Shown here: positions 1 to 63,536 of the stretch, one piece after another
How positions within the stretch are numbered: position 1 is the stretch's first letter
Layout of the letters: every line of letters starts with the position of its first letter
From: an uncultured Candidatus Binatia bacterium
GTDB taxonomy: Bacteria > Desulfobacterota > Binatia > Bin18
Reading direction: 5' to 3'
Assembly: GCA_965214605.1 (NCBI GenBank)
Contig: OZ243961.1
Span: forward strand, 3,872,001 to 3,936,000
DNA: 64,000 nucleotides
Notes under the pieces: generated by a model
Told to the model about the DNA's origin: nothing
The model's input: only the letters and a program-made list of their open reading frames with translations
The model's database searches: none
Translations under genes and position numbers: made by a program

Positions 1-425
1 ACCGTCTTATCAACAAACAACCCAACCGCCTGGATATTCTTTTCAGCATTATAGGCAGCCACGAGGCTTTTCCCCCAAAATGCTCGGATATTCTGATAGT
101 TTGAGTCGGGGGCAGGCCCAGTATCTTCAAATTGTCCGTATGTGAGCAATCCACGTAGGAAGGTATCTCGGCCGAGCAGCCTGAACTGAATCTCCTGTGC
201 AAATTCACAGAGATACATTGCACAATAAGATTTGTCGCTATTGGAAACGGCTGGTACTCCGTTGAATACGAGCAACGTGTCCGAAAATTGAATGACTCTG
301 AAATCTCCGTGGTTATGTGCGTTGGACTTGTCCAATACACGGAATAGATCAGGGAGAATTTCTGGCTTCGTATATACAAGCTCAGAAAATCCTAAGAGGT
401 CGATATAAAGAAGAAAGCGGTCCAT
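1..425 (-). CDS. Class III nucleotide cyclase-like protein, partial (runs off window start; absent from ORF track)
   Basis: Manual translation from ATG 425 with SD GGGGAGG: MDRFLLYIDLLGFSEL...VIQFSDTLLVF...FLRGLLTYGQF...FWGKSLVAAYNAEK. The DxxGF, FSD, RGxxxYG and GxxLVxAYxxE motifs fit the adenylate/guanylate cyclase fold. Confidence 0.7.
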   Translation of the reverse strand, partial: MDRFLLYIDLLGFSELVYTKPEILPDLFRVLDKSNAHNHGDFRVIQFSDTLLVFNGVPAVSNSDKSYCAMYLCEFAQEIQFRLLGRDTFLRGLLTYGQFEDTGPAPDSNYQNIRAFWGKSLVAAYNAEKNIQAVGLFVDKT

Positions 426-42948: not shown

Positions 42949-43807
42949 TTATTCTTTTGAGGCCATGAAACCAGTGAGAGGCGGTTTGGCCATAAAGGCG
43001 TCCCAGAACGAGGTGTTCCGCTAGGAGGGATGCAAATAGGGGCCGACCCACTGAAAATCGGCAAAGCCGGCTTCTTGAAAGCTCTGTCGCTTCCGGCGGC
43101 GGCTCTACCGGCGTCGGGACCCACTGAAAATCGGCAAAGCCGGCTTCTTGAAAGCTCTGTCGCTTCCGGCGGCGGCTCTACCGGCGTCGGGACCCACTGA
43201 AAATCGGCAAAGCCGGCTTCTTGAAAGGCTTCCCGACAGGTCTCCGGTGTCAGAAAAAAGTTCTTGAACTCAAACTGCCGCCCGTCTTCGTTAGTAAACC
43301 TGTAGATAATGGCGATCCCTTCTGTGAGGGGACGGGCGCAGGTTCTTTCAAAGCTGTACTGTCCCCAGGAGTCGGTTTCAGCAGGTGGAAGCCGGATATT
43401 ATCGTTGAAGCCGACAAATCGCCCTCCGGGTCGCAAGGCCTGGGAGACGACTAAGCAGAAGCGGAGGAGTTCGCCCCTGGTCTTAGCGTAATTCAGCAGA
43501 TACAGGGCCACCGCCACATGCTTGGGAGAGTTCCAGCTCTGCCACATCCTGATTGAGATAGGTGCAGCCGAGCGGGTGGCTCCGCTCTTCTTTCTCTGCC
43601 AGCCGGATCATTTCCGATGACGTGCGCGGCCCCGGCCTGCTTGAGTTTGCGGGTATAAAACCCCTTGCCGTAAGCTAGGTTCAACACCTGCTTGTCCCGA
43701 ATATCTCCCAGCGTCTCGAACAAGGTATATTCTTCAATATATTTGCGCCACGGATGGTGTTTGGAGTCTCTGTAGGCCGTAGCAATGAAATCGTACTCGT
43801 GACTCAT
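42949..43807 (-). pseudogene. Class I SAM-dependent methyltransferase, disrupted
   Basis: VLNLAYGKGFYTR; YLLNYA; LRPGGRF. Contains frameshifts, a stop and the 43045-43227 insertion. Confidence 0.75.
43045..43227 (+). CRISPR. CRISPR-like ectopic array: 3 x 37-bp repeat, 2 x identical 36-bp spacer, inside a CDS
   Basis: GACCCACTGAAAATCGGCAAAGCCGGCTTCTTGAAAG at 43045, 43118 and 43191. Confidence 0.7.
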
Positions 43808-47449: not shown

Positions 47450-47578
47450 GGGCCGTCTCTCCTCGTTGCTTTCCTCTCGACTCAGCGGGCACAATCCGAC
47501 CATCGCGCGTGGGCAGGTTTCAATCTCCTACGGAGCGTTGGCTTCATTTCGGAGCTCCGCAGCATTTTTCTTGTAAAA
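47450..47578 (-). CRISPR. Orphan I-D mini-array: leader motif, repeat, 35-nt spacer, degenerate repeat
   Basis: Repeat 47517-47553 is 32/37 identical to the main repeat; a 17-bp leader motif is shared with the main array. Confidence 0.7.
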
Positions 47579-47739
47579 AGCAAGCCTGTTCCCTCTGCCG
47601 CTAGGCGATGTTCCGGGAAGAAAGGGCTCATTTTAAACGAGTTTCTATCCCCTCTTCTGCCTGTTGCGGGACAAGGCGACATGATGAGTGAGGCGAGGAA
47701 CTCGGTCAATTAGAAAAAAGGGATCCTGAGGGGAAAATC

Positions 47740-48519: not shown

Positions 48520-49410
48520 ATGAACAACGGCATCGAAGGTTTGCAGGTCACGAAACTGACGAAGACGTACCTGGGCGGCATCCGCGCTCTCGACGCCGTC
48601 GACCTGACGGTCGGCCTGGGCCTCTACGGCCTGCTAGGCCCCAACGGCGCGGGCAAGAGCACCTTGATGCGGACCCTAGCCACGCTGCAGCAGCCCGACA
48701 ACGGCTCGATCACGCTGGACGGAGTGGACGCGCTCGCCGACCCCGACTACGTGCGCCGGCGGCTGGGCTACCTGACGCAGCAGATCGGCACCTATCCGAC
48801 CGTCACCGGACGGCAGCTCCTGGAACCGTTCGCCTGGCTCAAGGGCCGGACCGACGCGGCGGAACGCCGGCGGGCGGTCGCCGAGCTCCTCGAGCGGGTG
48901 AACCTGTGGGCGGACGCGGATCGCGCCGTCTCCACCTACTCCGGGGGCATGCTGCGCCGGTTCGGCATCGCCCTGGCCGGCAACCCGCGGCTGCTCATCG
49001 TCGACGAGCCCACCGCCGGTCTCGACCCCGCCGAACGCAGCCGCTTCCACCGCGTGCTAGCCGACAGCGCTGCCGACAACATCGTGCTGCTGTCGACCCA
49101 TATCGTCGACGACATCGAGAGCCTGTGCGAGCGGCTGTCCATCCTCGCGGGCGGGCGGATCGTCGCCGAAGGAACGCCGGTTGCCCTGACCGCACCGCTC
49201 GAAGGCCGCCTCTGGTCGCGCGTGGTGCCGTGCGGCGAGCCGCTGCCGGACGCTGTGCTGCACGTTTCGGCGACGCCAGCGGGCTCGCTCGTCGTCGAGG
49301 CGGCCTCGACCCCAGGGGAGATCTGGGTGCCCCACGCGCCGAGACTGGAGGACGTCTACCACGCGGCGATCGCCCGCGCCGGGTTCCGGGACGAGGAGGC
49401 GGTGGCGTGA
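48520..49410 (+). CDS. ABC transporter ATP-binding protein
   Basis: GPNGAGKST; YSGGM; IVDEPTAGLD; STH. Confidence 0.9.
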   Translation: MNNGIEGLQVTKLTKTYLGGIRALDAVDLTVGLGLYGLLGPNGAGKSTLMRTLATLQQPDNGSITLDGVDALADPDYVRRRLGYLTQQIGTYPTVTGRQLLEPFAWLKGRTDAAERRRAVAELLERVNLWADADRAVSTYSGGMLRRFGIALAGNPRLLIVDEPTAGLDPAERSRFHRVLADSAADNIVLLSTHIVDDIESLCERLSILAGGRIVAEGTPVALTAPLEGRLWSRVVPCGEPLPDAVLHVSATPAGSLVVEAASTPGEIWVPHAPRLEDVYHAAIARAGFRDEEAVA

Positions 49411-50753
49411 CGATGCTGCGTTTCGTGGCCGCGGAAGGGAAGCGTGGTACGAGTTCCGCGCCGGTTGCCGGGGGCCGCGCGGCACCGTGGCCGCGCTCCA
49501 CGGACCGTAGCGCGTGCGCGATGCGGACGGGGTCCTCGACGACGTGACAGCGATGCACGCCTGCGTCACCGCGCCCCGCGGCCGCGCGCCATCGGTCCGC
49601 AGGGTGCTGCAGGCCCCGCGCGAGCGTGGAGAAACCCCGCGTACTTTTTAGAGAAAATCAACCGCAACAGCAGGCCCCGCGCGAGCGTGGAGAAACTGCC
49701 CTCTATGGCGATGTGCTCTGGCTGCCCGAGCATGAGGGATGGGACATCGCGAGAGAGGCTTTCGGCCGCTGGCAGCGCCGCGCGACGATCGCGGCCGCGC
49801 TGGCGGCACGCCTGCTGGCGGACGGAGCCAACCTGCGGAAGAAGCCCGGCAAAGGCTGGCTGCGCGTCGGCGTACCCGGCTGGGTCGGGCTGGAGTGCGT
49901 CCGGCAGGGGGACGGCGTAGCATGGCTAGCGCTACAGGCGCGCCAGTGACCAGGTCATCGAAGCACTCGGCGCACTGAACGCTCCCGCCGTCGGCGTGGC
50001 CGCGGCGGGCGACGTGCCGTGGGTGCGGGAGTACACGCCCTTGGCAACGGTCGCTTGGGCAGAGTCGGTTGGGTCGGCCGCCGCCGACGCGGTTGGCGTG
50101 ATGGTCGAGCGGATGCGAGCAGGCGTCCCGCTGGCCGACGCCCTGGTAGAGGCCATCGGCACCGGTACCGCCGCGGCGCTTCTCGGACCGCTGGAGTCGT
50201 CGGACGTCCTGGTCGGGCAGGCGGAGCAGACCCTCAACAGTGGCGGCCAGCGATGGCTCTGGCGCGGCGGCGGCTGGAGCCGGTCGCCGCGACCATTCAC
50301 GTGATGCAGCGGTTCGACGACGACAGCGGCAGCCGGCGGCGGATCGGCCCGGTGCCGACGACGGTCGCCCCCGGCGCGCCGTTCACGTTGACCGACGCCT
50401 GGCCGTCGTTCGAACGGACGCCGATCGACAACCTCTGGCAGGGCCCCAGCGACGATTGACGCCCGCTGTCCGCGGAGAGTTCATGAATAACGGAGGAATC
50501 GCCTGGGTTCGCGCGGAGTCCGGTAAGTTGTGTGTAATGCGTTAGCCCGGAGATTCAAGTACCATGGGAACGGGGTTGGCCTCGTTCGGTTCTCCAGGTC
50601 CTTTGGCATAATCTCCGATCCTGCCGCTTTAACCAAGCGATTCTTCAGATATTCCATCTCTATTTTGTTATTAGCGAACAGACCGAAGACGAACCGAAGC
50701 GTCAGCCTCTGTTCTATCTCAAGAGTGTCAGGTATATAGACCGCCGTATAAAG

Positions 50754-53700
50754 GTTTCAATCTCCTACGGAGCTTTGGATTCGTTTCGACGTCCGCCGGG
50801 TCGATCAGCCCACGACGAATCATTTCGTTTCAATCTCCTACGGAGCTTTGGGTTCGTTTCGACCGCAAAGACCCAGAGAAGTTCGGGTATAAAATTGTTC
50901 CGTTTCAATCTCCTACGGAGCTTTGGGTTCGTTTCGACGAACATATTTTTGATGGGAAAAATACTTTAGTATTGTTTCAATCTCCTACGGAGCTTTGGGT
51001 TCGTTTCGACCAGAAGAAGGCTATCACGCCTGGGGACAACTTTTATTTCGTTTCAATCTCCTACGGAGCTTTGGGTTCGTTTCGACCCTGTTTTTCCCAG
51101 AACGGGGAAACCCGGTACTACGTGTTTCAATCTCCTACGGAGCTTTGGGTTCGTTTCGACTGTCTGTCTCAAGCGGCACGATCAGCCGCTTGTCATAGTT
51201 TCAATCTCCTACGGAGCTTTGGGTTCGTTTCGACCTTGAGGGTCTTCACGACCCGGTCAATAATGGTGAGGGTTTCAATCTCCTACGGAGCTTTGGGTTC
51301 GTTTCGACCGCCATGGAGCGCGGCGCGTCGAATAAGTATCCGACGGTTTCAATCTCCTACGGAGCTTTGGGTTCGTTTCGACCCTAGCCCTGGTCCCTCC
51401 TGCTCCAGCCCTCCCTGCTGTTTCAATCTCCTACGGAGCTTTGGGTTCGTTTCGACTCCCCCTGAAGCCCTTTTTGTGGGCTTCACGAGTCAGTTTCAAT
51501 CTCCTACGGAGCTTTGGGTTCGTTTCGACCCTAGAGCCAGCCAAAAGGAGATAACTATGGTTAATTGGTTTCAATCTCCTACGGAGCTTTGGGTTCGTTT
51601 CGACCGCCGAGCGGGAACTGCAAAAGCACTATCAGCTTGTTTCAATCTCCTACGGAGCTTTGGGTTCGTTTCGACCTTGAATGTGACTTAAGAGCTTGGT
51701 TCACCTACTTCTGTTTCAATCTCCTACGGAGCTTTGGGTTCGTTTCGACCAGGGACAGGGTGAGCAGAGAAGATCAGCTCGTTGAGGGTTTCAATCTCCT
51801 ACGGAGCTTTGGGTTCGTTTCGACGTCTCCCGCTCACCCTCCCTCCAACGAGTCGGCCCTGTTTCAATCTCCTACGGAGCTTTGGGTTCGTTTCGACTGC
51901 TCACTCCCTGCTCACTCCCTCCTTGGCTCACCCTGTTTCAATCTCCTACGGAGCTTTGGGTTCGTTTCGACGTCTCCCGCTCACCCTCCCTCCAACGAGT
52001 CGGCCCTGTTTCAATCTCCTACGGAGCTTTGGGTTCGTTTCGACCTCACGAAATGTTCCAACTCTTGCTTTGTCTACATCAGGTTTCAATCTCCTACGGA
52101 GCTTTGGGTTCGTTTCGACCTGGTAATCCCGCCAGCTCTTGCGCGGGCCTTTATAAATGGTTTCAATCTCCTACGGAGCTTTGGGTTCGTTTCGACATAG
52201 TCCCCTCACCGATAGGTAAAGCCGAGAATGCCAGTTTCAATCTCCTACGGAGCTTTGGGTTCGTTTCGACCCTGCAGTTTGTCGCGGACCGGCTGGGAGT
52301 GCGACCGGTTTCAATCTCCTACGGAGCTTTGGGTTCGTTTCGACCGGCGGTTCCGCGTTGCTTGGAGCCCGGGTACCCCCGAGTTTCAATCTCCTACGGA
52401 GCTTTGGGTTCGTTTCGACCCCCAGAACCCGGGTTATGCCCTGTCCGGCGAACTGAAGTTTCAATCTCCTACGGAGCTTTGGGTTCGTTTCGACCCACAG
52501 CGCCTGCTGGCCAACCACCTGGCCGCGTGACCGTTTCAATCTCCTACGGAGCTTTGGGTTCGTTTCGACCCGCAGGAGTGAGGTCGCCGGCCAAATTGCC
52601 CGTGCGAGTTTCAATCTCCTACGGAGCTTTGGGTTCGTTTCGACCCCTGTGAAGCCTCCACCCCAAGGCAAGGCACTCGCCTCAAGTTTCAATCTCCTAC
52701 GGAGCTTTGGGTTCGTTTCGACCCAATGCGTTCAACACCTCGTACACGCAAAATATCGTCGCGTTTCAATCTCCTACGGAGCTTTGGGTTCGTTTCGACC
52801 CCCGGGCAGCTCGTCATCTCAAGCCGCTATCTCGAGCGGTTTCAATCTCCTACGGAGCTTTGGGTTCGTTTCGACCCACCGGACAATATGACCGGTTGGC
52901 GGATGCCATAGTAGTTTCAATCTCCTACGGAGCTTTGGGTTCGTTTCGACCCCCTGGGGTAAGGTCCCCAGCAAGGTTACCAGTACGAGTTTCAATCTCC
53001 TACGGAGCTTTGGGTTCGTTTCGACCCCGACATAAGTAGCGTGGGTCTCAAGGCCAAGAAGGTTTCAATCTCCTACGGAGCTTTGGGTTCGTTTCGACTT
53101 GCTGCTCTGTGTAGGGTTGTCGGCCCAACTCAAGTTTCAATCTCCTACGGAGCTTTGGGTTCGTTTCGACGCCGAAGCTCTCGATGGCCTCGTTGGCGTC
53201 GCCGCGTTTCAATCTCCTACGGAGCTTTGGGTTCGTTTCGACCCCCAGACGGCCGCTGAGGCCGAAAAATCGGTATCGGTTTCAATCTCCTACGGAGCTT
53301 TGGGTTCGTTTCGACCGAACGCGGATAGGGAGCTCGCCTCTCTGCCGCGAGGCGTTTCAATCTCCTACGGAGCTTTGGGTTCGTTTCGACCCAGTTGAAA
53401 AGTTGATAATCCGGCCACGATCGCCAAAGTTTCAATCTCCTACGGAGCTTTGGGTTCGTTTCGACCCCAACTCCCCGAGTTCCATGGCCAAGTTCGCGGT
53501 CGCGTTTCAATCTCCTACGGAGCTTTGGGTTCGTTTCGACCCCAAGCGCGTCCGCCGCGTTCTTGACACGTATGGATGTTTCAATCTCCTACGGAGCTTT
53601 GGGTTCGTTTCGACCCCGCCCCCGCACTCCGCCCCACGTCGAACCCAGATCAGTTTCAATCTCCTACGGAGCTTTGGGTTCGTTTCGACCCGTCCCGAGG

Positions 53701-56384
53701 CGATCAACCAACTCACCCTTACCCTAGGTTTCAATCTCCTACGGAGCTTTGGGTTCGTTTCGACCTCACATCATTCCGTTACGCGTTTGACGGTCCATTC
53801 GGTTTCAATCTCCTACGGAGCTTTGGGTTCGTTTCGACCGCGATGTGGCTCCAGCCTGCGAGCAGCTTGCTCTTAGTTTCAATCTCCTACGGAGCTTTGG
53901 GTTCGTTTCGACCCCATGATATCAGGGCTGCTGGGTGTCCCGGCGGTCCGGTTTCAATCTCCTACGGAGCTTTGGGTTCGTTTCGACCCTCTGAGTTGCC
54001 TCTCTCACGCGTATGCGTGTTTTGTTTCAATCTCCTACGGAGCTTTGGGTTCGTTTCGACCCCGGCGCGTCACCCGGGCACCGCAAGGGGACGAGCTCGT
54101 TTCAATCTCCTACGGAGCTTTGGGTTCGTTTCGACCCTGGCCGATCGTAGTGCGGCCGGACGTCTTTGTCCGTGTTTCAATCTCCTACGGAGCTTTGGGT
54201 TCGTTTCGACCCTGCCAGAACTCCACGCACCATCCGTTGTTTTTCTGCCGTTTCAATCTCCTACGGAGCTTTGGGTTCGTTTCGACCCTCGAACCGCTGC
54301 GGGAGCGTAAACTGGCCGTTCGACGTTTCAATCTCCTACGGAGCTTTGGGTTCGTTTCGACCCCGGCCTGCAAGGCCGCCGCGGCCTCGTCACAGCGCGG
54401 TTTCAATCTCCTACGGAGCTTTGGGTTCGTTTCGACCCGGGAGGGAGCTCCTCCCGGTAGAGGTCATTCTTCCGGTTTCAATCTCCTACGGAGCTTTGGG
54501 TTCGTTTCGACGCCGCGACACAAGCCGAACCCTTTGTCTGGAGGATTCGTTTCAATCTCCTACGGAGCTTTGGGTTCGTTTCGACTCAACGCCGTACTCA
54601 CAACGGAGATGGTGATCGCAATGTTTCAATCTCCTACGGAGCTTTGGGTTCGTTTCGACCTCGCTTAAATCGTTCTTGGTGTTGTCTAGCCTGGTGTTTC
54701 AATCTCCTACGGAGCTTTGGGTTCGTTTCGACCCAAGCAGAATCCTCGCATTATCACGTTGCTTGATTTGATTGTTTCAATCTCCTACGGAGCTTTGGGT
54801 TCGTTTCGACCACACTATGCCCGCGGGGAATATGAAAAAGCAAAAGAGTTTCAATCTCCTACGGAGCTTTGGGTTCGTTTCGACCCCCGGAACAGGTCGA
54901 TGTGTTTATGTGCTTTAATGGAGGTTTCAATCTCCTACGGAGCTTTGGGTTCGTTTCGACCCATGCCCGGTCGGACACCGCTGTGGGCATTCGTGAGCAT
55001 GTTTCAATCTCCTACGGAGCTTTGGGTTCGTTTCGACCCCAAATAAGCGGATGTACGACGGCAATCTACTATTCAGTTTCAATCTCCTACGGAGCTTTGG
55101 GTTCGTTTCGACCCCAATCTCCAGAAAGTCTATGTGCTCTTGCCGTCACGAGTTTCAATCTCCTACGGAGCTTTGGGTTCGTTTCGACCCTCCGATTACG
55201 GAGGCTTAAGCAGTCGGTTAGAATGTGTTTCAATCTCCTACGGAGCTTTGGGTTCGTTTCGACCAACTGTTTAACCTTGCACGGGCATAGTGTGGATTAT
55301 GTTTCAATCTCCTACGGAGCTTTGGGTTCGTTTCGACCCAGGATGTTGCCGGCCGCGTCTTTCTGGCTGATCTGTTTCAATCTCCTACGGAGCTTTGGGT
55401 TCGTTTCGACCGGACAGAGCAGCGTATATATAGGTATAGGAAAGGAGGTTTCAATCTCCTACGGAGCTTTGGGTTCGTTTCGACCCCTTCGCAATCTGGA
55501 TGCCATCGGAACGTTAATCGGGTTTCAATCTCCTACGGAGCTTTGGGTTCGTTTCGACCCACGGTAATTGAGAAGACAACTAATCCCCCCCGAGTATAGT
55601 TTCAATCTCCTACGGAGCTTTGGGTTCGTTTCGACCCGCCATCGCACGGCCCATCCCCAGGGGGTCGACAGGTTTCAATCTCCTACGGAGCTTTGGGTTC
55701 GTTTCGACCCCCCCCCGCGATGCCCCGGGACAATTCCGCCTTCGTGGGGTTTCAATCTCCTACGGAGCTTTGGGTTCGTTTCGACCCCTGATGAACAACC
55801 GACACGAGGATCGCAAAAGGTTGTTGTTTCAATCTCCTACGGAGCTTTGGGTTCGTTTCGACCGTGGAAGAGCAATAAAAATCGATTCTCCCTGCCTGAG
55901 TTTCAATCTCCTACGGAGCTTTGGGTTCGTTTCGACCGAAACCACATCGACACCAAAGACCATCTTGAACTCGGTTTCAATCTCCTACGGAGCTTTGGGT
56001 TCGTTTCGACCCCCCGGCCACAGGTCCGGCGGTGACGGCGGATCATGCTCGTTTCAATCTCCTACGGAGCTTTGGGTTCGTTTCGACCCCGGCTCAGGCG
56101 CCGGCTCAGGAGGCTCCCCATAAAGTTTCAATCTCCTACGGAGCTTTGGGTTCGTTTCGACCCAGGGCATCCCAGGTCGGCCGCGTCCTGGAGCCAGGGT
56201 TTCAATCTCCTACGGAGCTTTGGGTTCGTTTCGACCCATGATCTCTATCGGTCGGACACGGGGCCCACGGTGGTTTCAATCTCCTACGGAGCTTTGGGTT
56301 CGTTTCGACCCCGTCCATACCTGGCCCGGCTCGAGATTCAAAAGGCGGTTTCAATCTCCTACGGAGCTTTGGGTTCGTTTCGAC
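50754..56384 (-). CRISPR. Type I-D CRISPR array, 76 repeats / 75 spacers (manual count)
   Basis: 37-bp repeat GTCGAAACGAACCCAAAGCTCCGTAGGAGATTGAAAC on the minus strand; spacers about 34-41 bp; one-mismatch trailer repeat at 50754. Confidence 0.98.
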
Positions 56385-56583
56385 CCCCCCTAGGGCATTT
56401 TTCTTGTAAAATCAGGATCTTAAGGACCCTTTGGCGCGGGTCGCTGGTTTTCAGATGAATTTCTGAGCCTCTCCTCCCTACCTTTGGCAGTTGCATCTTC
56501 TCAACTCCTTGATCCTTCGGTATTTTCAAATAAACGCGGATCTACCCATATTTGATCAACAGCTTCGATACGCGCTGGATGAG
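56385..56583 (-). promoter_or_regulatory. CRISPR leader
   Basis: AT-richer non-coding stretch between cas2 and the first repeat. Confidence 0.8.
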
Positions 56584-56859
56584 CTAGATAATGACCGCTC
56601 CTTCTTTTCGCGGTTTTTCTCCGCCTATACGTTTGATTTGTTGTTTGCAATGCTCACACAGAAAATAGAAGCGCACGCTATCATCCTCGCCCGGCCTGAT
56701 GAATTCGTTCAACCGGTCCTTTAAACGCGCCAGGTTCATTTTGTCAAGTTCACACTCAAAAACGCTATACTGCATCCACTGACCAAAATTCTTGAGCGTC
56801 TTAAAAACACGATTGCGTCGTTTGTCGCTGCGGATATCGTACGAGATGATAACAAACAT
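56584..56859 (-). CDS. cas2: CRISPR-associated Cas2
   Basis: ISYDIRSDKRR..QYSVFEC..DSVRFY. Confidence 0.95.
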   Translation of the reverse strand: MFVIISYDIRSDKRRNRVFKTLKNFGQWMQYSVFECELDKMNLARLKDRLNEFIRPGEDDSVRFYFLCEHCKQQIKRIGGEKPRKEGAVII

Positions 56860-56882
56860 GCTCTTATTCCTTCCACTGAGTA

Positions 56883-57884
56883 TTATCGCACCACAAATGG
56901 CTCATACCGTTCGATCTCTCCCTGAACGCACTTGGCTAGGATGCGTGCCTGGAGTTCAAAACATCGTTGATATGTCGCGCGGTATGTAAACACCGGATGC
57001 TGTATTTCTGTTTGTTTGCGGACCTCGTATTGTGCTAGGAACTTCTTTCGTGCTTCTGGCTTGAGACGATGAACCTTTCCTAGGCTGACTTCGAAATCCG
57101 TAGTTTGAAGAACCCGCTTGTTGAGGCATGTTAAGACAACTGCGTCTACTACAATTGGGCGAAACTCCTCCATGAGATCCAAGGCCAATGACGGACGGCC
57201 ATACCGGTCGGCGTGCAAGTAACCGCAGTACGGATCAAACCCCAATACCTGTATAGCCGCGTGTATATCGCTGGCCAGCAGCGCATAACCAAAGCTGAGC
57301 AAAGCATTGACTGGGTCAGTCGGTGGCCGTCGCACGCGCTTTGGAAAAGAGACGCCCTCGGCTTTGATGAGCTGATTAAAGACGCTGAAATAGGCGGCTG
57401 AGCCCTCGCCCTCATGGCCACGCAGCGCGTCGAGATCTTCTGCACCCGCAAGGTGGCGTTCTGCTCGTCTGATTGTTTCCACGGTCCTATCAAGGTTCAA
57501 TCCTTCGGTATTGCGAGCCGCCCGTAATAATGTCACTCGAAGATTTGCTAGCTTGCCAGCAACAAATCCTCTGGCCAAAGTTAGGGTTCGATCCCGGTCA
57601 AAGGCCGCTACATATTGCGCCCGTCGAAGCAGCGAATTTTTGGACAAGGCGGGTTCAATGCGGCCGATATATCGGCCATGTTCCGTCAGATAAGTGAGGC
57701 AGACGCTTCTGTCCATCAAGGCCGCTACTGTGTGGGGTGTTACCGTTACCCGTCCCACTACCACGACCTGAGAAACTTTGAGCATGGGCAGGTCAAGTAG
57801 CTTTTTACCCTTGAGGGTGACCTTGAGGCGTTCATCTTCTTTGCGTAGTACCGAGTCCTGTTGAGTAAGATAGAGTGTAGACAT
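56883..57884 (-). CDS. cas1: CRISPR-associated Cas1 (type I-D)
   Basis: LRGHEG..AAYF; RRPPTDPVNALLSFGY; LALDLMEEFRP. Confidence 0.95.
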   Translation of the reverse strand: MSTLYLTQQDSVLRKEDERLKVTLKGKKLLDLPMLKVSQVVVVGRVTVTPHTVAALMDRSVCLTYLTEHGRYIGRIEPALSKNSLLRRAQYVAAFDRDRTLTLARGFVAGKLANLRVTLLRAARNTEGLNLDRTVETIRRAERHLAGAEDLDALRGHEGEGSAAYFSVFNQLIKAEGVSFPKRVRRPPTDPVNALLSFGYALLASDIHAAIQVLGFDPYCGYLHADRYGRPSLALDLMEEFRPIVVDAVVLTCLNKRVLQTTDFEVSLGKVHRLKPEARKKFLAQYEVRKQTEIQHPVFTYRATYQRCFELQARILAKCVQGEIERYEPFVVR

Positions 57885-57910
57885 AGGAAGAGGCTGTAGA
57901 CTGTGGGGAT

Positions 57911-58507
57911 TTACTCCTTGCTCGAGGGAGTCCGACCGCTCTGTAGCCGAGCGGTCTCTTTTGGAAGACAGAGGCCGTGTAAGCTGCAACCCTCGCAACG
58001 GGGAGTATAGGGGTTTGGTGGGCGCTGGCCGGACTCAATTAGCCGACGAACGACGCTAATCGTCTCAATTGTTTGCCGACGTAACATTTTGGTAAACTGC
58101 ACCTCCTTGCGTCGCCCTGTGGAGGCATAAAACAGATAGCCTTTTGGAATCTCCTGCCCCTGCATCTCCTCAAGACACAGGGCTTGAGCGCAGAGCTGGA
58201 GCTCATCGTTCGTCCACTTTCCGCGTCGACCTTTTTTGTGTTCAACCGGATAGAGCAAACCCGCTTTCTCTTCAATAACATCGGCCTTTCCGGTGAGACC
58301 GTAGGCATGAGAGTAGAGATATACGCTACGAAGCTGCAAGATGTCGTCCCGTCTGGTCGTTTCGTCAGAGTGCGAACGAGTGTGTTGAAGCGTGCCTTCT
58401 ACTGTATGTTCGTTGTCGAGAAAGGTATTTTCAACGAACAGATAATAACACCTCCGGGGGCAGTATTCGTATTGGTTCAAAGCAGAGATGTAGATGTAAT
58501 CGTCCAT
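57911..58507 (-). CDS. cas4: CRISPR-associated Cas4
   Basis: YCPRR; GKAD; PVEHK; QLCAQ; CxxCxxxxxC. Confidence 0.95.
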   Translation of the reverse strand: MDDYIYISALNQYEYCPRRCYYLFVENTFLDNEHTVEGTLQHTRSHSDETTRRDDILQLRSVYLYSHAYGLTGKADVIEEKAGLLYPVEHKKGRRGKWTNDELQLCAQALCLEEMQGQEIPKGYLFYASTGRRKEVQFTKMLRRQTIETISVVRRLIESGQRPPNPYTPRCEGCSLHGLCLPKETARLQSGRTPSSKE

Positions 58508-58522
58508 AAGAGAACCTGTCGC

Positions 58523-59377
58523 TTAAGCCCTAATCCTCCGAGCCATTCCAAAGCCCATCGTCGTGCGCGCGCCAATACCAGAGAAGAAGGCCAGATCGGC
58601 AAGCGCGTTGAGTTGCTTGTTTAGCTCTCCTATGGCGCTGCCGCACAAGCGGAAATGGCAGGTGCCAACGAATCCAGGAAACCCTGTCGTGCGGTATTGT
58701 CCGTCGGCCCTTGGAAACACGAGCCGTGCCTGCTGCGATGAAATGCGGTGGGACATCATTTCCAGATTATGAGCAAAGATATCTTTCAGCAGCGCTTCAT
58801 CAGGAAAGGGTAGGGGAGAGAACTGGTTCCAGTTTTGGAGCAGGCTACCAAAAAGCAACTCCGGTAAGGGGAGGGGAACCATCAAATCCGGGTAGGCGGC
58901 CCCCCCCCCACGTTTGAAGAACGTTGGCGTGACAAAGTGGAAGGAAAAGAGTTTTTCTTCCACTGAGGCCTGGTCGTATATATCCTCAAAAGAACAACAG
59001 CCCGCCCAAGCTTCATTGCTGTGTGGAGTGCTCAGAATACGGGCGACTGTCAAGTCCGTCCGGACCAGCTCAAGCCTGAGAGCTGGCGCAGTCAGAAAAT
59101 AACGGGATAGAAGAGGATAGATCGCATCATCCAGAAAGGTGAATCGAATTCTCAGTTCCTCGCCTGCACGTATCTTCTCTGCCCGCCGCTGACGATCGTC
59201 CAGCAGAAGAGTAGTGGAAAAGGGCTTGAGCCCGGATATATCATGGACCTCATCCCCTTTGGCTACGCTTGCCTTTTGGAGCAGTTCATAAAAGATACCG
59301 TGCAGGATCTTACCCTGGGTGTGAAGCACGGGCATATCCGTACTGGGGAAGGCGTAAATGACGAGGGCGTAGGGCAT
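58523..59377 (-). CDS. cas6: CRISPR-associated Cas6
   Basis: KPFS; FVTPT; GIGARTTMGFG. Confidence 0.95.
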   Translation of the reverse strand: MPYALVIYAFPSTDMPVLHTQGKILHGIFYELLQKASVAKGDEVHDISGLKPFSTTLLLDDRQRRAEKIRAGEELRIRFTFLDDAIYPLLSRYFLTAPALRLELVRTDLTVARILSTPHSNEAWAGCCSFEDIYDQASVEEKLFSFHFVTPTFFKRGGGAAYPDLMVPLPLPELLFGSLLQNWNQFSPLPFPDEALLKDIFAHNLEMMSHRISSQQARLVFPRADGQYRTTGFPGFVGTCHFRLCGSAIGELNKQLNALADLAFFSGIGARTTMGFGMARRIRA

Positions 59378-59443
59378 GATTAAATCTCCTGAAAAGTTTA
59401 AAAATTTTTTCGCTGGCTACAAAGAACCCTATAGCTTCACTCA

Positions 59444-61789
59444 CTATGCTATCCACCACTCTCCCGTCTGTCGTTTGAGCGACCAACCATAACGACCCAT
59501 GACCTTATAACCATCTAAGCCATCTAGAAGGCGGAGTTTTCTTGGAGGGGAACAATCTTCTGCAAAGGTGATGTTGAGATCCGTATAATGAATTCCCTCC
59601 CGGATAAGCCTGCCCCATTGCCAGGGCTTGAGATCATCAGTATCAAGAATAAAGCAGGGGATGTAGCGTGTAGAGAGGACCTCGGTCATCCGATCTAGAT
59701 CTGGAATGGGAACAATTGCTCCCTGTTGTTTCAGACTGAGGGAGAGCTTCGGAAGGGCGGTTGGCTTTTTCGTATAACGCCTCCGAAAATCTCTCCAGCT
59801 ACCTTCAAAATGCCGTATCCAGCTTACCTGTAAAGGCTGATCTAGGATGTCCCGGAGGATAACCTTGAGGTTGCCTTTCTCGGGATGCGACTCTGCCTTG
59901 AGCCGCCAAGAGTAGAATCGGAGGAGGTGAAAAAGCCTGAGTTGTACAGTCTCGCGGGCCGGTGATACCAATCCGTGCGGGTCGTCAGCCTCAATCTCTA
60001 TGCCAATGTCAGGGTTGCGAAAGCTGAATATTGGCCGAAGTGCGACCTCTTCACGGACAAGATAGTCACGAAGTTGTTCCCGGCCCCGGTCCGTGGATAG
60101 AATTTGTTCTACCTTGCCCTTGACCTCCTCTTTGCTTAGAACTAGTTCTCCTTCCTCTCGCGCATATTCGCGTAAAGCCCTGACTACCGCGGTGCCAGGT
60201 TTCATATTGGACTGCCGCAATTCCTGCTGCAAACGGCGGAAGTCCTGCAAACGGCGGATCTCTCCTTTCAGCCTCCGAAGGGTTCTTTTACTCGAAGGAG
60301 CGTAGACCCGCTTAATCCTGTCAAATGTCTGCTCAATGATGTCCCCGTTCTCTCCCAGCAGTCGTTGCATTTCTGATAGCGGTTGGGCCACCTCAAGCAG
60401 GGTATAGGAGCTAATGTATTCTGCAAATGAAGGGCGATGCATATCTCCATTTGCAGCTTCATGTAATAAACTCTTTAGTTCTGTCCGAGAAAGAGCAACG
60501 TCTTCTCCAATTTTTTCATGCAGTCTACGCCAGGGCTCGTCTGGGATGAAGGCAAATCCAAGAGATGGAGCGTCTTGAATTCGTTTGCCTAGGACGCGGC
60601 CTCCGCGTCCTAGGCGTTGCCAAAATTGATCTTCTAACAACGCCTCAAAACCCACAAAGTCGAGGTTTTGTTGATCCTTTGCTCGGCCCTCAAAGTTGAA
60701 ACCAATGTCTACCGTAGGCGTGGCAAGAAGGAGAGGTCTGAAACGAGCCTGTTTTCGTTCCTCCTTTCCCAGTGGGCCGGTTATTCTTCCGACATTCTGT
60801 ACCCCGAGTCTACGCTCGAACTTTCTGGCAAGACGATTCACACCATATAAGCTGTTGAGGAGAATTGCCCCATCGTTTTTTTGCTCAACCAGATTGGCAA
60901 TTTGTTCGATACAGGAGGAAAATTCTCTGGCTGCATCTCGCGTATACGGGAATAGCTCCAGCTCCAACTTGGTCAGGCTTTTGGTTGTCAGACGGTCAGG
61001 CACCGTTGCGGGTTCCGGATCCAATCTTTTGATCGAAATCCCTTCGTCGGCTAATCGCTCAACGAAGAGATTCAGATCCGAATCAGGCGTTGCTGTGAGC
61101 AAACAAATTTTTCTCCGCTCGGTTTGACTAGGCGCGAAGTAGCCAAACGCTTTGGACAGTAGAACAAAGAAGAGTAAGTTAGCGAATTGTTTAGCGTCGT
61201 AGTAGTGGACTTCGTCGATAATAATGTACTGAAACTTACTAATGAACTGCTCGGCGATATTGCGCTGGTCAAGGCGATTAAAGAGGTAGAAAATGCCGTA
61301 ATAAAACAGGTCAGGATTCGTCACCAGGACGAGAGGAGGCTTTGCGCTGCGTTGGGAGTTTTGTGCCTTCAGGACCAGTGATGGGTTGGTGAGAATCCGG
61401 TAGAACCGCTCGCCAGGTCTTTTTCCAAGGGTGTCGGGTAGCTCTCGCAAAAAAGCGGCATCCACGCTCTCCACAACATGAGGCAAGCCAGCGGTTGCGA
61501 TAAATTGCTTCACATCCTGAGCATGTTGTCTTACTAGTTCATTTACCGGAGCGATGAACAGGGTGTTGACCTGTGGGTGATTGAGGAGCCACAGAAGAGC
61601 AGCCTTCGTTTTGCCCGTACCAGTGGGGAAAGCATTGAGGACCATATCGTGCTCTGCCAGGGCCGAAACCGTGTCCATTTGATGTTGGAGGGGGGTGGGC
61701 AATACTCTGTGAATGTTGATCGGGACGGTCTCAGGTGCAGCAATTCGTTCATATTCTGCCCCAAGATGGATACGGATTGGTCTGGTCAT
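59444..61789 (-). CDS. cas3: Type I-D helicase Cas3' (no HD domain)
   Basis: PTGTGKT; TNPD; DEVHYY; TATP; QRLGRGGR. Confidence 0.9.
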   Translation of the reverse strand: MTRPIRIHLGAEYERIAAPETVPINIHRVLPTPLQHQMDTVSALAEHDMVLNAFPTGTGKTKAALLWLLNHPQVNTLFIAPVNELVRQHAQDVKQFIATAGLPHVVESVDAAFLRELPDTLGKRPGERFYRILTNPSLVLKAQNSQRSAKPPLVLVTNPDLFYYGIFYLFNRLDQRNIAEQFISKFQYIIIDEVHYYDAKQFANLLFFVLLSKAFGYFAPSQTERRKICLLTATPDSDLNLFVERLADEGISIKRLDPEPATVPDRLTTKSLTKLELELFPYTRDAAREFSSCIEQIANLVEQKNDGAILLNSLYGVNRLARKFERRLGVQNVGRITGPLGKEERKQARFRPLLLATPTVDIGFNFEGRAKDQQNLDFVGFEALLEDQFWQRLGRGGRVLGKRIQDAPSLGFAFIPDEPWRRLHEKIGEDVALSRTELKSLLHEAANGDMHRPSFAEYISSYTLLEVAQPLSEMQRLLGENGDIIEQTFDRIKRVYAPSSKRTLRRLKGEIRRLQDFRRLQQELRQSNMKPGTAVVRALREYAREEGELVLSKEEVKGKVEQILSTDRGREQLRDYLVREEVALRPIFSFRNPDIGIEIEADDPHGLVSPARETVQLRLFHLLRFYSWRLKAESHPEKGNLKVILRDILDQPLQVSWIRHFEGSWRDFRRRYTKKPTALPKLSLSLKQQGAIVPIPDLDRMTEVLSTRYIPCFILDTDDLKPWQWGRLIREGIHYTDLNITFAEDCSPPRKLRLLDGLDGYKVMGRYGWSLKRQTGEWWIA

Positions 61790-62547
61790 TGTCGGGCCCT
61801 TCGCCGACCTCTTCTACGAGGCGGGGCATCGGCAGGTAATCTGAACATCATTCCGGCCGGTATCCGAATGTCGTCTAGATAGCACATGCGGCCAGAAAGC
61901 TGAGCGTTAATGATGAGCGGGACGGGCGGTAGGTTGAACAGATCATGATAGCCGACCTCGACCGTCGGAGGCAGGTCGAGAGGATTAAGGAATATCTCGA
62001 CCTGCTCGGCCTGAACGTCCTGAGTCGGTGGATCTTGCCATGTCTGAGTGACCTCAAGGCGTATTTTCCCCATAAACTTTCCGAGACGAATGTAGCGAGG
62101 GAGAGAGACAGATTCCCGAGAGAACACATAGCAGCGGAAACGGTTTCCCCGGGAGAGCACGCGGAGTCGTCCTTTCTGGGGGAAGTTGGTAGCTGGAGCA
62201 CGAATGCTGTCAAGACGGACGGCGAGATCGGCAACAATTGCATTGTTTGCCATTTTATACCAGTACGAATCGACCATACCGTTAAAACGCTCAACCTCCA
62301 GCGCGGGTGTTCCCACAGGAGTGCCCGGGGTTACATAGAGACCTTTCTTGTTGAGACCTCCGAGGTCTTCTCGATAGTAAGGGCGGTCCTCTCGGTCTGA
62401 CTGCCGATAGGGCGATAAACAGAACCCCAGCGCATAGGTCAGCGCGTAGTTGCCGAGCACGGGCTCTGTCTGGAACAGTTCATCGATTTCTCGGCTCGCA
62501 AAGAAGACCTTCTCATGCAGGGTGAGATCAAGACGATAGACAAACAT
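61786..62547 (-). CDS. cas5d: Type I-D Cas5/Csc1
   Basis: FFASRE..TEPVLGNYALTYALG; LPRYIRLGKFMGK. Confidence 0.9.
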   Translation of the reverse strand: MFVYRLDLTLHEKVFFASREIDELFQTEPVLGNYALTYALGFCLSPYRQSDREDRPYYREDLGGLNKKGLYVTPGTPVGTPALEVERFNGMVDSYWYKMANNAIVADLAVRLDSIRAPATNFPQKGRLRVLSRGNRFRCYVFSRESVSLPRYIRLGKFMGKIRLEVTQTWQDPPTQDVQAEQVEIFLNPLDLPPTVEVGYHDLFNLPPVPLIINAQLSGRMCYLDDIRIPAGMMFRLPADAPPRRRGRRRARQ

Positions 62548-62555
62548 AAGGCTTC

Positions 62556-63536
62556 CTACTGTCTCTTTTTTGTCACGGCTGAAGTAGGATAAGATTCGTC
62601 AAGACGCCGGAGAAAAGCTTCTGGAGCTTCATATGTCTTCTTCACCTCGACCAGAAACTCGTCAAGCCGCGGCCCGCTCATTACCTGATAGTCTCCGATA
62701 GTTTCCGAGAGGAGATTTGTCAGGACGCCGTCCTCTCCGCGAATAGCCGAAACAATCTCAGTCGTTTGTAACGGGTGTTCCTTGTCAGTGAGGCGTTGAT
62801 AGGTTGCCTGAGTCAGCTCTAAGGAGCTGAAGATTTCAGTCCGGGAAAAAACAAGGCCAAGAATACTGTTCTGGACTCTCCCGATACGAGACGAAATGGC
62901 ACCGTAGCGGGAGCTCCGCAAAATGTTTCCGCACGCATAAAGCAGTTCGTCAGCAGTGACATCTTTGAGGACTTCGAGGTCAATGAAATGCGACTCAGGT
63001 TTAACGTACTCGCTTTCGTTGATGCTTGTTGACGGCTCTCCGGTGAGAGGATTACGCATGGTACCATTGTCAAAGAGTGCATTAAAAGTCTTGGTGTCTA
63101 CAATTGAAGGAGCCGGTAGCAAGGAGAAGGCATCTTCGGTCAAAACCCTCGATTTTTGAGCCCCTCCCCCACCAGCCGCAAATCCATAGAGCCAACAGTC
63201 TACACATTGCTCACAGGGATTATTGGTGTTGAGCATACACTCTTCTGTCCCATCTTTGATTTTTTTGAGGAGGCCAAAACTTCGCAACAGTTCTCTGCCC
63301 GTCCGGCGTTCAACAGCGGTTTGTTTGCGCTTGGAAATGACGATTCGGGGAATCACTTCACTGTCATTGAGTCCTGCTCGGACAAACTCACGGTTCAACG
63401 GCTCACCGCTTCCTTCGGTCCGAAAGATGGCCTCGGATTTTGTTTCACGTAGGACAATAAGGTTCACATATCGCCCTTGGGGCAGATTGGAATATTCACT
63501 CAGCAGAAAATCTGGGTACGCGCTCAGTGTATTCAT
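62556..63536 (-). CDS. cas7d: Type I-D Cas7/Csc2
   Basis: FRTEG; KRKQTAVERRTGR; CVDCWLYGFA; RYGAISSR. Confidence 0.92.
   Translation of the reverse strand: MNTLSAYPDFLLSEYSNLPQGRYVNLIVLRETKSEAIFRTEGSGEPLNREFVRAGLNDSEVIPRIVISKRKQTAVERRTGRELLRSFGLLKKIKDGTEECMLNTNNPCEQCVDCWLYGFAAGGGGAQKSRVLTEDAFSLLPAPSIVDTKTFNALFDNGTMRNPLTGEPSTSINESEYVKPESHFIDLEVLKDVTADELLYACGNILRSSRYGAISSRIGRVQNSILGLVFSRTEIFSSLELTQATYQRLTDKEHPLQTTEIVSAIRGEDGVLTNLLSETIGDYQVMSGPRLDEFLVEVKKTYEAPEAFLRRLDESYPTSAVTKKRQ

Follow-up and report, generated by a model that had tools for sequence, protein, structure and literature searches.

The locus at positions 43045-43227 of the window (the whole stretch of 64,000 nucleotides that was analysed) lies near the end of a methyltransferase gene and has the exact composition A-B-A-B-A, where A is a 37-bp segment of the gene, B is a 36-bp sequence and all copies are 100% identical. 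The architecture given in the original prediction, a 37-bp unit occurring three times with a 36-bp sequence in between, was recovered exactly by both a script and TRF, the latter reporting a single array with a period of 73, 2.5 copies, 100% matches and 0% indels. A is found three times and B twice in the 4.37-Mb genome, all within this locus. The bases bordering the copies of A differ (A1 is preceded by C, A2 and A3 by G; A1 and A2 are followed by C, A3 by G), hence the duplicated unit is exactly 37 bp long. On the minus strand, A codes for FQEAGFADFQWV, close to the C-terminus of the methyltransferase.

None of the three methyltransferase fragments of the window matches a Pfam family, and the assignment was made with the intact orthologue, a class I SAM-dependent methyltransferase with matches to both Methyltransf_25 and Methyltransf_11. 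The orthologues in genomes G006 and G007 are intact, with 286-287 residues. Compared with these, the gene of the window carries a 17-bp deletion near 43614, indels of +3 and -5 at 43519-43529, a CAG>TAG change at 43023-43021 and three substitutions that turn the SAM-binding motif I from DLACGE into NLAYGK. Judged by its sequence, it is a decayed pseudogene. Deleting the 146-bp insert brings the reading frame back into register with the orthologues, as expected from the plausible C-terminus noted earlier, but the short end of that restored protein (..GPYLHPS*) stems from the CAG>TAG change, and the orthologues are 24 residues longer. Similarly, what had been proposed as a disruption of the gene by the adaptation machinery may have been an insertion into a gene already dead; given its four other lesions, the insert need not have killed it.

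The insert is absent from the related genomes. A DNA search of 40 relatives gave, for the two closest genomes of the same genus, split matches, with a 37-bp overlap between the two pieces on the subject side. In the alignment, all of the orthologous loci from the same genus (5/5) contain one A and no B, the window being 146 bases longer. A contig of run X7, from a more distant relative, spans the site in 226 letters against 373 in the window (147 fewer), again with a single A and no B. With up to 3 mismatches allowed, B was detected in only one of 401 genomes of the class, which is the genome of the window itself. That B might be native to the orthologous genes, a possibility named along with the original prediction, is ruled out by these alignments.

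The genome holds several CRISPR systems, one of which lies in the window, 13 kb from the insert. Its Cas1d, Cas2 and Cas4 all score above their family cut-offs (409 bits for Cas1d with TIGR04093, cut-off 385), which gives the genome a cognate adaptation module. The type I-D signature genes (cas3', csc1, csc2, cas1d and cas6) adjoin the array and are all above the NCBIfam cut-offs, the large subunit running off the end of the window. Sixteen further I-D repeats are found on a small contig. The DNA from cas2 through the leader to the repeat had matches in none of the seven other genomes of the genus (0/7). In addition, the genome has an I-E system with a geometry of 28+33 (repeat plus spacer, in bp) in 93/93 spacers, an array at C1:528854 with a geometry of 36+30 in 11/16 spacers, and a second array with 37-bp repeats at C1:1687758-1689739, whose Cas1 (C1:1690257-1691267) is also above the family cut-off. 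The features of the window are listed in Table 1.

Table 1. Features of the window discussed in the text, with positions on the window.
Feature	Position	Strand	Remarks
Class I SAM-dependent methyltransferase pseudogene	42949..43807	-	From alignment with orthologues; carries the 146-bp insert
Left flank of the site	43025..43044	+	ATGC..TAGGGG; resembles the native I-D leader end (ATGCCCTAGGGGGG)
A1, first copy of the 37-bp duplicated target	43045..43081	+	Methyltransferase coding sequence, FQEAGFADFQWV on the minus strand
B1, 36-bp spacer-like insert	43082..43117	+	Absent from orthologues
A2, second copy of the 37-bp target	43118..43154	+	Located by script
B2, second copy of the insert	43155..43190	+	Identical to B1; located by script
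A3, third copy of the 37-bp target	43191..43227	+	Located by script
Second stray insertion, I-E geometry	49609..49697	+	28-bp duplication (last base differs), 33-bp insert
Native type I-D array	50753..56384	-	75 exact 37-bp repeats and a degenerate terminal repeat
I-D leader	56385..56583	-	From cas2 to the first repeat, about 200 bp; GCCAAA at about -51 (-51..-46); ends CCCTAGGGGGG
Adaptation genes	56584..58507	-	cas2 (56584-56859), cas1d (56883-57998), cas4 (57911-58507)
cas6, I-D cas3', csc1/cas5, csc2/cas7	58523..63536	-	NCBIfam matches

The dimensions of the insertion are those of the I-D system. A is as long as the I-D repeat (75 exact copies of 37 bp), and the 36 bp of B fall within the range of the native I-D spacers (34-41 bp) and of those in related I-D arrays of the same family (mostly 35-37 bp); both lengths had been correctly described in the original prediction. 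Spacers of exactly 36 bp account for 9/74 in the native array. The final GG of B had also been noted as matching a bias of the array for G at the spacer 3' end. This bias does exist, with a final G in 63/74 spacers and a final GG in 44/74, but it has no diagnostic value. The mean length of the I-D spacers rises with the number of terminal Gs, from 36.2 bp for none to 37.3 bp for one, 38.0 bp for two and 38.2 bp for three or more, and the related arrays, whose leaders lack a terminal G-run, show no G bias; the GG end of B is therefore not evidence. The G-run at the boundary between leader and repeat, rather than the prespacer, is probably where the extra 3' Gs of the native spacers originate, in which case the core spacer would be about 36 bp long.

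We consider it highly probable that the structure at 43045-43227 was created by off-target integration by the type I-D Cas1-Cas2 complex, with or without Cas4, the duplication of the unit being secondary. This interpretation, already put forward from the sequence, is supported by the empty sites of the orthologues, the 37/36 geometry, a genome-wide signature and the self-derived inserts of sister loci, the last two of which are described below. A variant of it, in which the second 37-bp-repeat module and not the neighbouring I-D module carried out the integration, seems improbable to us. The repeat of that system is likewise 37 bp long and likewise ends ATTGAAAC, its Cas1 is above the family cut-off, and A agrees with it at 12/37 positions, against 13/37 for the I-D repeat. 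However, its 24 spacers measure 39-52 bp and none is as short as 36 bp, and its leader ends TTTGGTAGAGG, unlike the flank of the methyltransferase site, whereas the end of the I-D leader matches that flank in register. These differences make the I-D enzyme the more probable integrase.

The I-D leader ends TAGGGGGG and the flank of the methyltransferase site reads TAGGGGCC, while A ends TTGAAAG and the I-D repeat TTGAAAC; the sequences thus read as had been described for both resemblances. Over the 20 bases of flank plus A, compared with 20 bases of leader plus the 37-bp repeat, 20/57 positions agree (p = 0.057), and A compared with the I-D repeat alone agrees at 13/37 (p = 0.2). The matches cluster, with TAGGGG at -8..-3 and TTGAAA at 31..36. 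This combination is found twice in contig C1 (both strands), at the native junction and at the methyltransferase site, and at least two in-register runs of at least 6 nt in common with leader plus repeat are seen in 306 of 8,624,144 genome windows (3.5e-5), this site included. Since these block statistics were picked after the data had been seen and related I-D leaders show no conservation of the final 8 nt, the apparent likeness of the site to the I-D leader-repeat junction is rated as suggestive only. None of the five orthologues shares the TTGAAA, which is peculiar to this genome; they read GTGAAA, GTCAAA, CTCAAA or TTCAAA. The hairpin that had been pointed out in A is present, but its likeness to the native hairpin is at chance level (z = -0.52) and it lies 4-5 nt away from the native position; as 51 of 200 shuffled sequences fold equally well or better, it was dropped as evidence.

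The whole genome was scanned for direct repeats at offsets of 40-130 bp, excluding the known arrays and multi-copy repeat families. Exact repeats gave 36 isolated pairs, with peaks at periods of 61 (5 pairs), 73 (5 pairs) and 76-79 (8 pairs), and the number rose to 49 when a few mismatches were permitted. The geometries of the resident systems (28+33, 36+30, 37+34-41 and, for the second 37-bp array, 37+39-52) occupy 50 of the 3136 length cells (1.6%), in which 24 of the 49 pairs were observed against 0.78 expected (P = 3e-30 by a binomial test with a uniform null, a crude figure). These 24 take in one duplicate contig copy, one genuine mini-array ending ATTGAAAC and part of a 48-bp tandem repeat; the methyltransferase locus and C1:711165, which the scan set aside as tandem or multi-copy, are additional to them. 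Duplications elsewhere in the genome with inserts of spacer length, which the original prediction had proposed to look for, are therefore present, about half of the isolated pairs carrying the repeat and spacer lengths of a resident system. This signature decides for a CRISPR origin. The other 25/49 pairs match no CRISPR geometry. The genome also contains perfect tandem repeats whose periods (30, 36, 54, 99 and 159 bp) are unrelated. At 29 candidate loci, the open frames measured after removal of the insert were uninformative, as the high G+C content of the genome yields long spurious ones.

Several of the sister loci have empty counterparts in related genomes. The 28+33 locus at C1:4089123 is present as a single copy with no insert in 4/4 aligned relatives, and the one at C1:91695, within a conserved gene for a transporter-like membrane protein, has an empty site in 2/2 relatives. 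C1:711165 has four repeats with three different inserts and is a single copy in 3/3 relatives. The regions of C1:500128, 1399850, 2103855, 2197075, 3676203 and 4250365 and of window positions 49000-50300 are not conserved in the five genomes of the genus. Three other events with a period of 73 are compatible with 37+36.

The source of some of the inserts could be traced to the chromosome itself. For 8/32 inserts, a near-full-length copy is located elsewhere in the chromosome, with ends within 1 nt of the boundaries of the insert (33/33, 32/33, 32/33, 33/33, 32/32, 36/36, 34/35 and 30/30 nt). Second copies of random fragments of 30-36 nt were found in 77/3984 cases, and relative to this rate the 8/32 corresponds to P = 1.4e-7. 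For example, the insert of the second stray insertion in the window is identical to C1:1215783-1215815. At C1:1967743, a locus of I-D geometry (37+36), the exact 36-bp protospacer is preceded by GTC, which fits the GTN PAM of type I-D. For the I-E class, no consistent PAM motif emerged from the self-derived stray inserts (TGA, CCG, GTC, TGA and ATC) or when native spacers were also tried. Self-derived spacers make up 5/225 in the native arrays, against 25% of the stray inserts, a difference expected if self-targeting guides are selected against and silent stray inserts are not.

In the nine events of the I-E class, the targets show in-register similarity to the I-E repeat (p from 0.0008 to 0.16; Fisher P = 1.4e-7) but not to the other repeats. 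Similarly, the single 36+30 target agrees with its own repeat at 18/36 positions (p = 0.003). The 37-bp-class targets, of I-D geometry or that of the second 37-bp array, showed as a group no resemblance to their repeats.

These sister loci weigh against a process that has nothing to do with CRISPR, such as staggered-break repair that uses filler DNA or the activity of a small mobile element, in which the lengths of 37 and 36 would be coincidental. Such a process would be in keeping with the searches for the source of B, which gave no match, with the tandem repeats of unrelated periods and with the 25 pairs outside the CRISPR geometries. It does not account for the exact 37/36 geometry, for the concentration of 24/49 pairs in 1.6% of the length cells, or for sister loci that bear spacer-length copies of distant DNA, and we regard it as very unlikely. 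No transposon or repair pathway of bacteria is known to us to create target duplications of 28 bp and 37 bp around inserts of 30-36 bp.

The structure of the locus was checked in the unitigs (Logan) of two sequencing runs, X1 and X2, which belong to two different studies. The left junction (L-A), A-B-A (96 nt), A itself (37 nt) and the right junction (A-R) are all present in both with 0 differences, which confirms every junction. The copy number was confirmed in part. In X2, the depth is about 10 for the flank, 19.3 for the A-B-A unitig and 30.3 for the A unitig, a ratio of 1:2:3 that fits A-B-A-B-A with two copies of B. In X1, the corresponding values are 5-5.8 (about 5.4), 4.5 and 10.2, which fit A-B-A with a single B, but the inference is weak since the depth is only about 5. 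The comparison of the two runs suggests that the duplication of the 73-bp unit was a separate, later step. This check covers the locus at 43045-43227; the other loci rest on one assembly, apparently a metagenome-assembled genome. An assembly artefact, which could be imagined for a genome of this kind and with a copy number that differs between runs, is hardly credible at the methyltransferase locus given four junction types without differences in the unitigs of two studies and X2 depths in the predicted ratio. Finally, a simple tandem duplication by slippage of sequence native to the gene, to which the perfect head-to-tail copies might point, can be dismissed: one A and no B in five orthologues, and again in the X7 contig, exclude it, the 73-bp unit is out of frame, and the duplication of one unique segment cannot yield an A-B-A core.

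Off-target integration by the I-D machinery thus stands as the preferred explanation, and its course may be pictured in four steps. The I-D complex would first have attached a prespacer of 36 bp to both strands of the methyltransferase gene, the attachment points being separated by 37 bp, a distance set by its repeat-length ruler. The site would have been chosen because its left flank (ATGC..TAGGGG) and the TTGAAA of the target happen to resemble, in register, the leader end and the repeat end, respectively; a role of this resemblance in the choice of the site is plausible. Gap repair would then have duplicated the 37 bp and produced A-B-A. Unequal recombination or replication slippage between the copies of A could finally have duplicated the 73-bp unit to give A-B-A-B-A. 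The second B-A unit probably arose by such a slippage-type tandem duplication, and the order of events proposed here would place it last.

The search for a protospacer of B, suggested along with the original prediction, yielded no source in any of the collections that were covered. The best match in the own genome was 17 nt long, blastn against phages and plasmids gave best E values of 1 and 0.1, and exact scans of viral and genome contigs, like the 401 genomes of the class apart from B itself, returned none. A wobble-tolerant pattern, with N at the wobble positions, found nothing beyond chance in viral, genome and metagenome contigs.

The resulting neo-array is probably not functional as a CRISPR array. 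A lacks the native hairpin and the repeat sequence that Cas6 would need, agreeing with the I-D repeat at the 13/37 positions mentioned above and having its hairpin shifted, at chance level. Moreover, B1 and B2 are identical and the locus does not contain several different spacers.

Taking the loci together, we think it likely that the genome has preserved a natural record of spacer integration by promiscuous adaptation modules, at least three in number (I-E; I-D and/or the second 37-bp system; and 36+30), with more than 20 insertions, of which about a quarter are self-copied and some break conserved genes (the methyltransferase and C1:91695), while C1:711165 has grown to four repeats with three inserts. 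On this reading, the self-derived inserts would be tolerated because they are not expressed as guides. If it is true, CRISPR adaptation in the wild mutates genes by insertion and gives rise to new arrays.

In the accessible parts of the literature, off-target integration by Cas1-Cas2 is known mainly from over-producing E. coli or from reactions in vitro, and natural cases are few and circumstantial. The genome described here offers a fixed natural event of I-D geometry with empty-site controls and read support, together with about two dozen sister events from several systems. Through the length of the duplications, this set provides an in vivo ruler of each integrase. It also gives the spectrum of prespacers before selection (25% self-derived, against 5/225 of the native spacers), as well as the preferences for off-target sites and the mutational cost of adaptation. 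Stray insertions of this kind bear on the origin of new CRISPR arrays, and the apparent difference in copy number between the two sequencing campaigns suggests that natural populations may allow the process to be tracked. What makes the finding of interest is how extensive and clean the natural record is within one genome. A literature search of main texts retrieved no paper describing numerous natural off-target integrations within a single genome, nor any on off-target integration for type I-D.

The closest known case is that of Nivala, Shipman and Church, who in 2018 reportedly found, for the type I-E system of E. coli with over-produced Cas1-Cas2, that a spacer can be put outside the array at a site resembling the leader-repeat junction, the repeat-length target being duplicated to form a proto-array of two repeats. 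In the accessible parts of papers citing that work, off-target integration in E. coli is said to be capable of spawning arrays, and circumstantial natural cases are mentioned for two other species. The methyltransferase locus is of the same class: the duplication is as long as the repeat, the insert has the size of a spacer, relatives have the empty site and the genome encodes a cognate adaptation module. The locus differs in being natural, of I-D geometry (37+36), located within a gene and later enlarged by duplication of the unit. The genome differs as well: its roughly two dozen events follow the geometries of three or four systems, many of the inserts are self-derived, and three different inserts sit at one locus.

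The I-D system of Synechocystis shares with that of the window the 37-bp repeat and a GCCAAA motif in the leader, about 50 bp upstream in Synechocystis (PMC6607411) and at -51..-46 here. As far as the accessible parts of the reports go, its Cas1-2 mostly integrates 36 bp, or 35 bp with Cas4 (PMC5896167), Cas1-2 alone suffices for adaptation (PMC5896167, PMC6607411), and new spacers are mostly derived from the genome, with a GTN PAM that depends on Cas4 (Kieper et al. 2018, PMC5896167). Integration can also take place, at a low rate, when the leader is lacking (Kieper et al. 2019, PMC6607411). The organism of the window differs in that its leader ends in a G-run and its spacers bear extra 3' Gs. 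In addition, the accessible parts of the Synechocystis papers (PMC5896167, PMC6607411) deal with integration into arrays only, and off-target I-D events do not appear there.

For Pyrococcus furiosus, the accessible part of the report describes how Cas1-Cas2 inserts spacers in vitro into non-CRISPR DNA with features of the repeat, spaced by the repeat length (Grainy et al. 2019, PMC6698737). That system is archaeal and was studied on plasmids in vitro, whereas the event in the window is a fixed genomic one. Ordinary tandem duplications or VNTRs have perfect head-to-tail copies in common with the locus, but the A-B-A core, with DNA foreign to the gene between native copies, sets it apart. The kind of event is already known from the work of Nivala, Shipman and Church; the methyltransferase locus is a new natural case of it, and the number of such events in one genome is unusual.

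A second stray insertion, that is, a spacer-length insert between repeat-length copies of its target and attributed to off-target Cas1-Cas2 integration, lies within the window and has the geometry of the I-E array. Its two target copies differ at the last base, the target matches the I-E repeat at 16/27 positions (p = 0.0008), and the insert is identical to C1:1215783-1215815 on contig C1 of the same genome.

Features in the window and elsewhere on contig C1
Feature	Coordinates	Strand	Structure
Native I-D array	window 50827-56384		
Orphan leader-like stretch	window 47516-47600	minus	single degenerate I-D repeat
Stray insertion, I-E geometry	window 49609-49697		28-bp duplication around 33-bp insert
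L031	C1:91695-91783		28+33 insertion
L042	C1:711165-711379		four repeats, three different inserts (33, 32, ~43 bp)
L044, stray event	C1:125255		32-bp insert
Repeats with two different inserts	C1:1706198-1706361		three 31-32-bp repeats; inserts of 34 and 37 bp
Cas1-like open frame	C1:612055-613453		with adjoining tandem repeat

Outside the window, the L031 insertion interrupts a conserved membrane-protein gene that is uninterrupted and intact in two relatives. The position of L042 is single copy in three relatives, and this locus looks like a stray site that later took up further spacers. The L044 insert exactly copies C1:2307693-2307724, a segment of the leader belonging to the I-E array itself. 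The two-insert locus does not fit the geometry of any of the four resident arrays, and one of its inserts is identical at 27/28 positions to C1:4260291-4260318.

The 4.4-Mb genome holds at least four CRISPR arrays of differing kinds (I-D, I-E, a second 37-bp repeat, and 36-bp repeats with 30-bp spacers), as well as four Cas1 genes over the family cut-off. The Cas1-like open frame scores under that cut-off and is adjoined by a tandem repeat in which a 44-bp unit is present in 12.5 copies. In the window, the orphan leader-like stretch, reading TTTTTACAAGAAAAATGCT.., is followed by one degenerate I-D repeat with no spacers, and together they are 83% identical to the native I-D leader end and repeat.

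In the native I-D array, 63 of the 74 spacers carry a terminal G, and spacers are about 1 nt longer for each terminal G, a pattern absent from related arrays. The native leader ends in a run of six Gs, and these observations suggest that the leader-side nick slips within the G-run. Inside the same array, at window 51788-52044, two copies of a single spacer lie on either side of another, different one. This is a duplicated repeat-spacer unit, the same type of event as that proposed for the second 73-bp unit (B-A) at the methyltransferase pseudogene.
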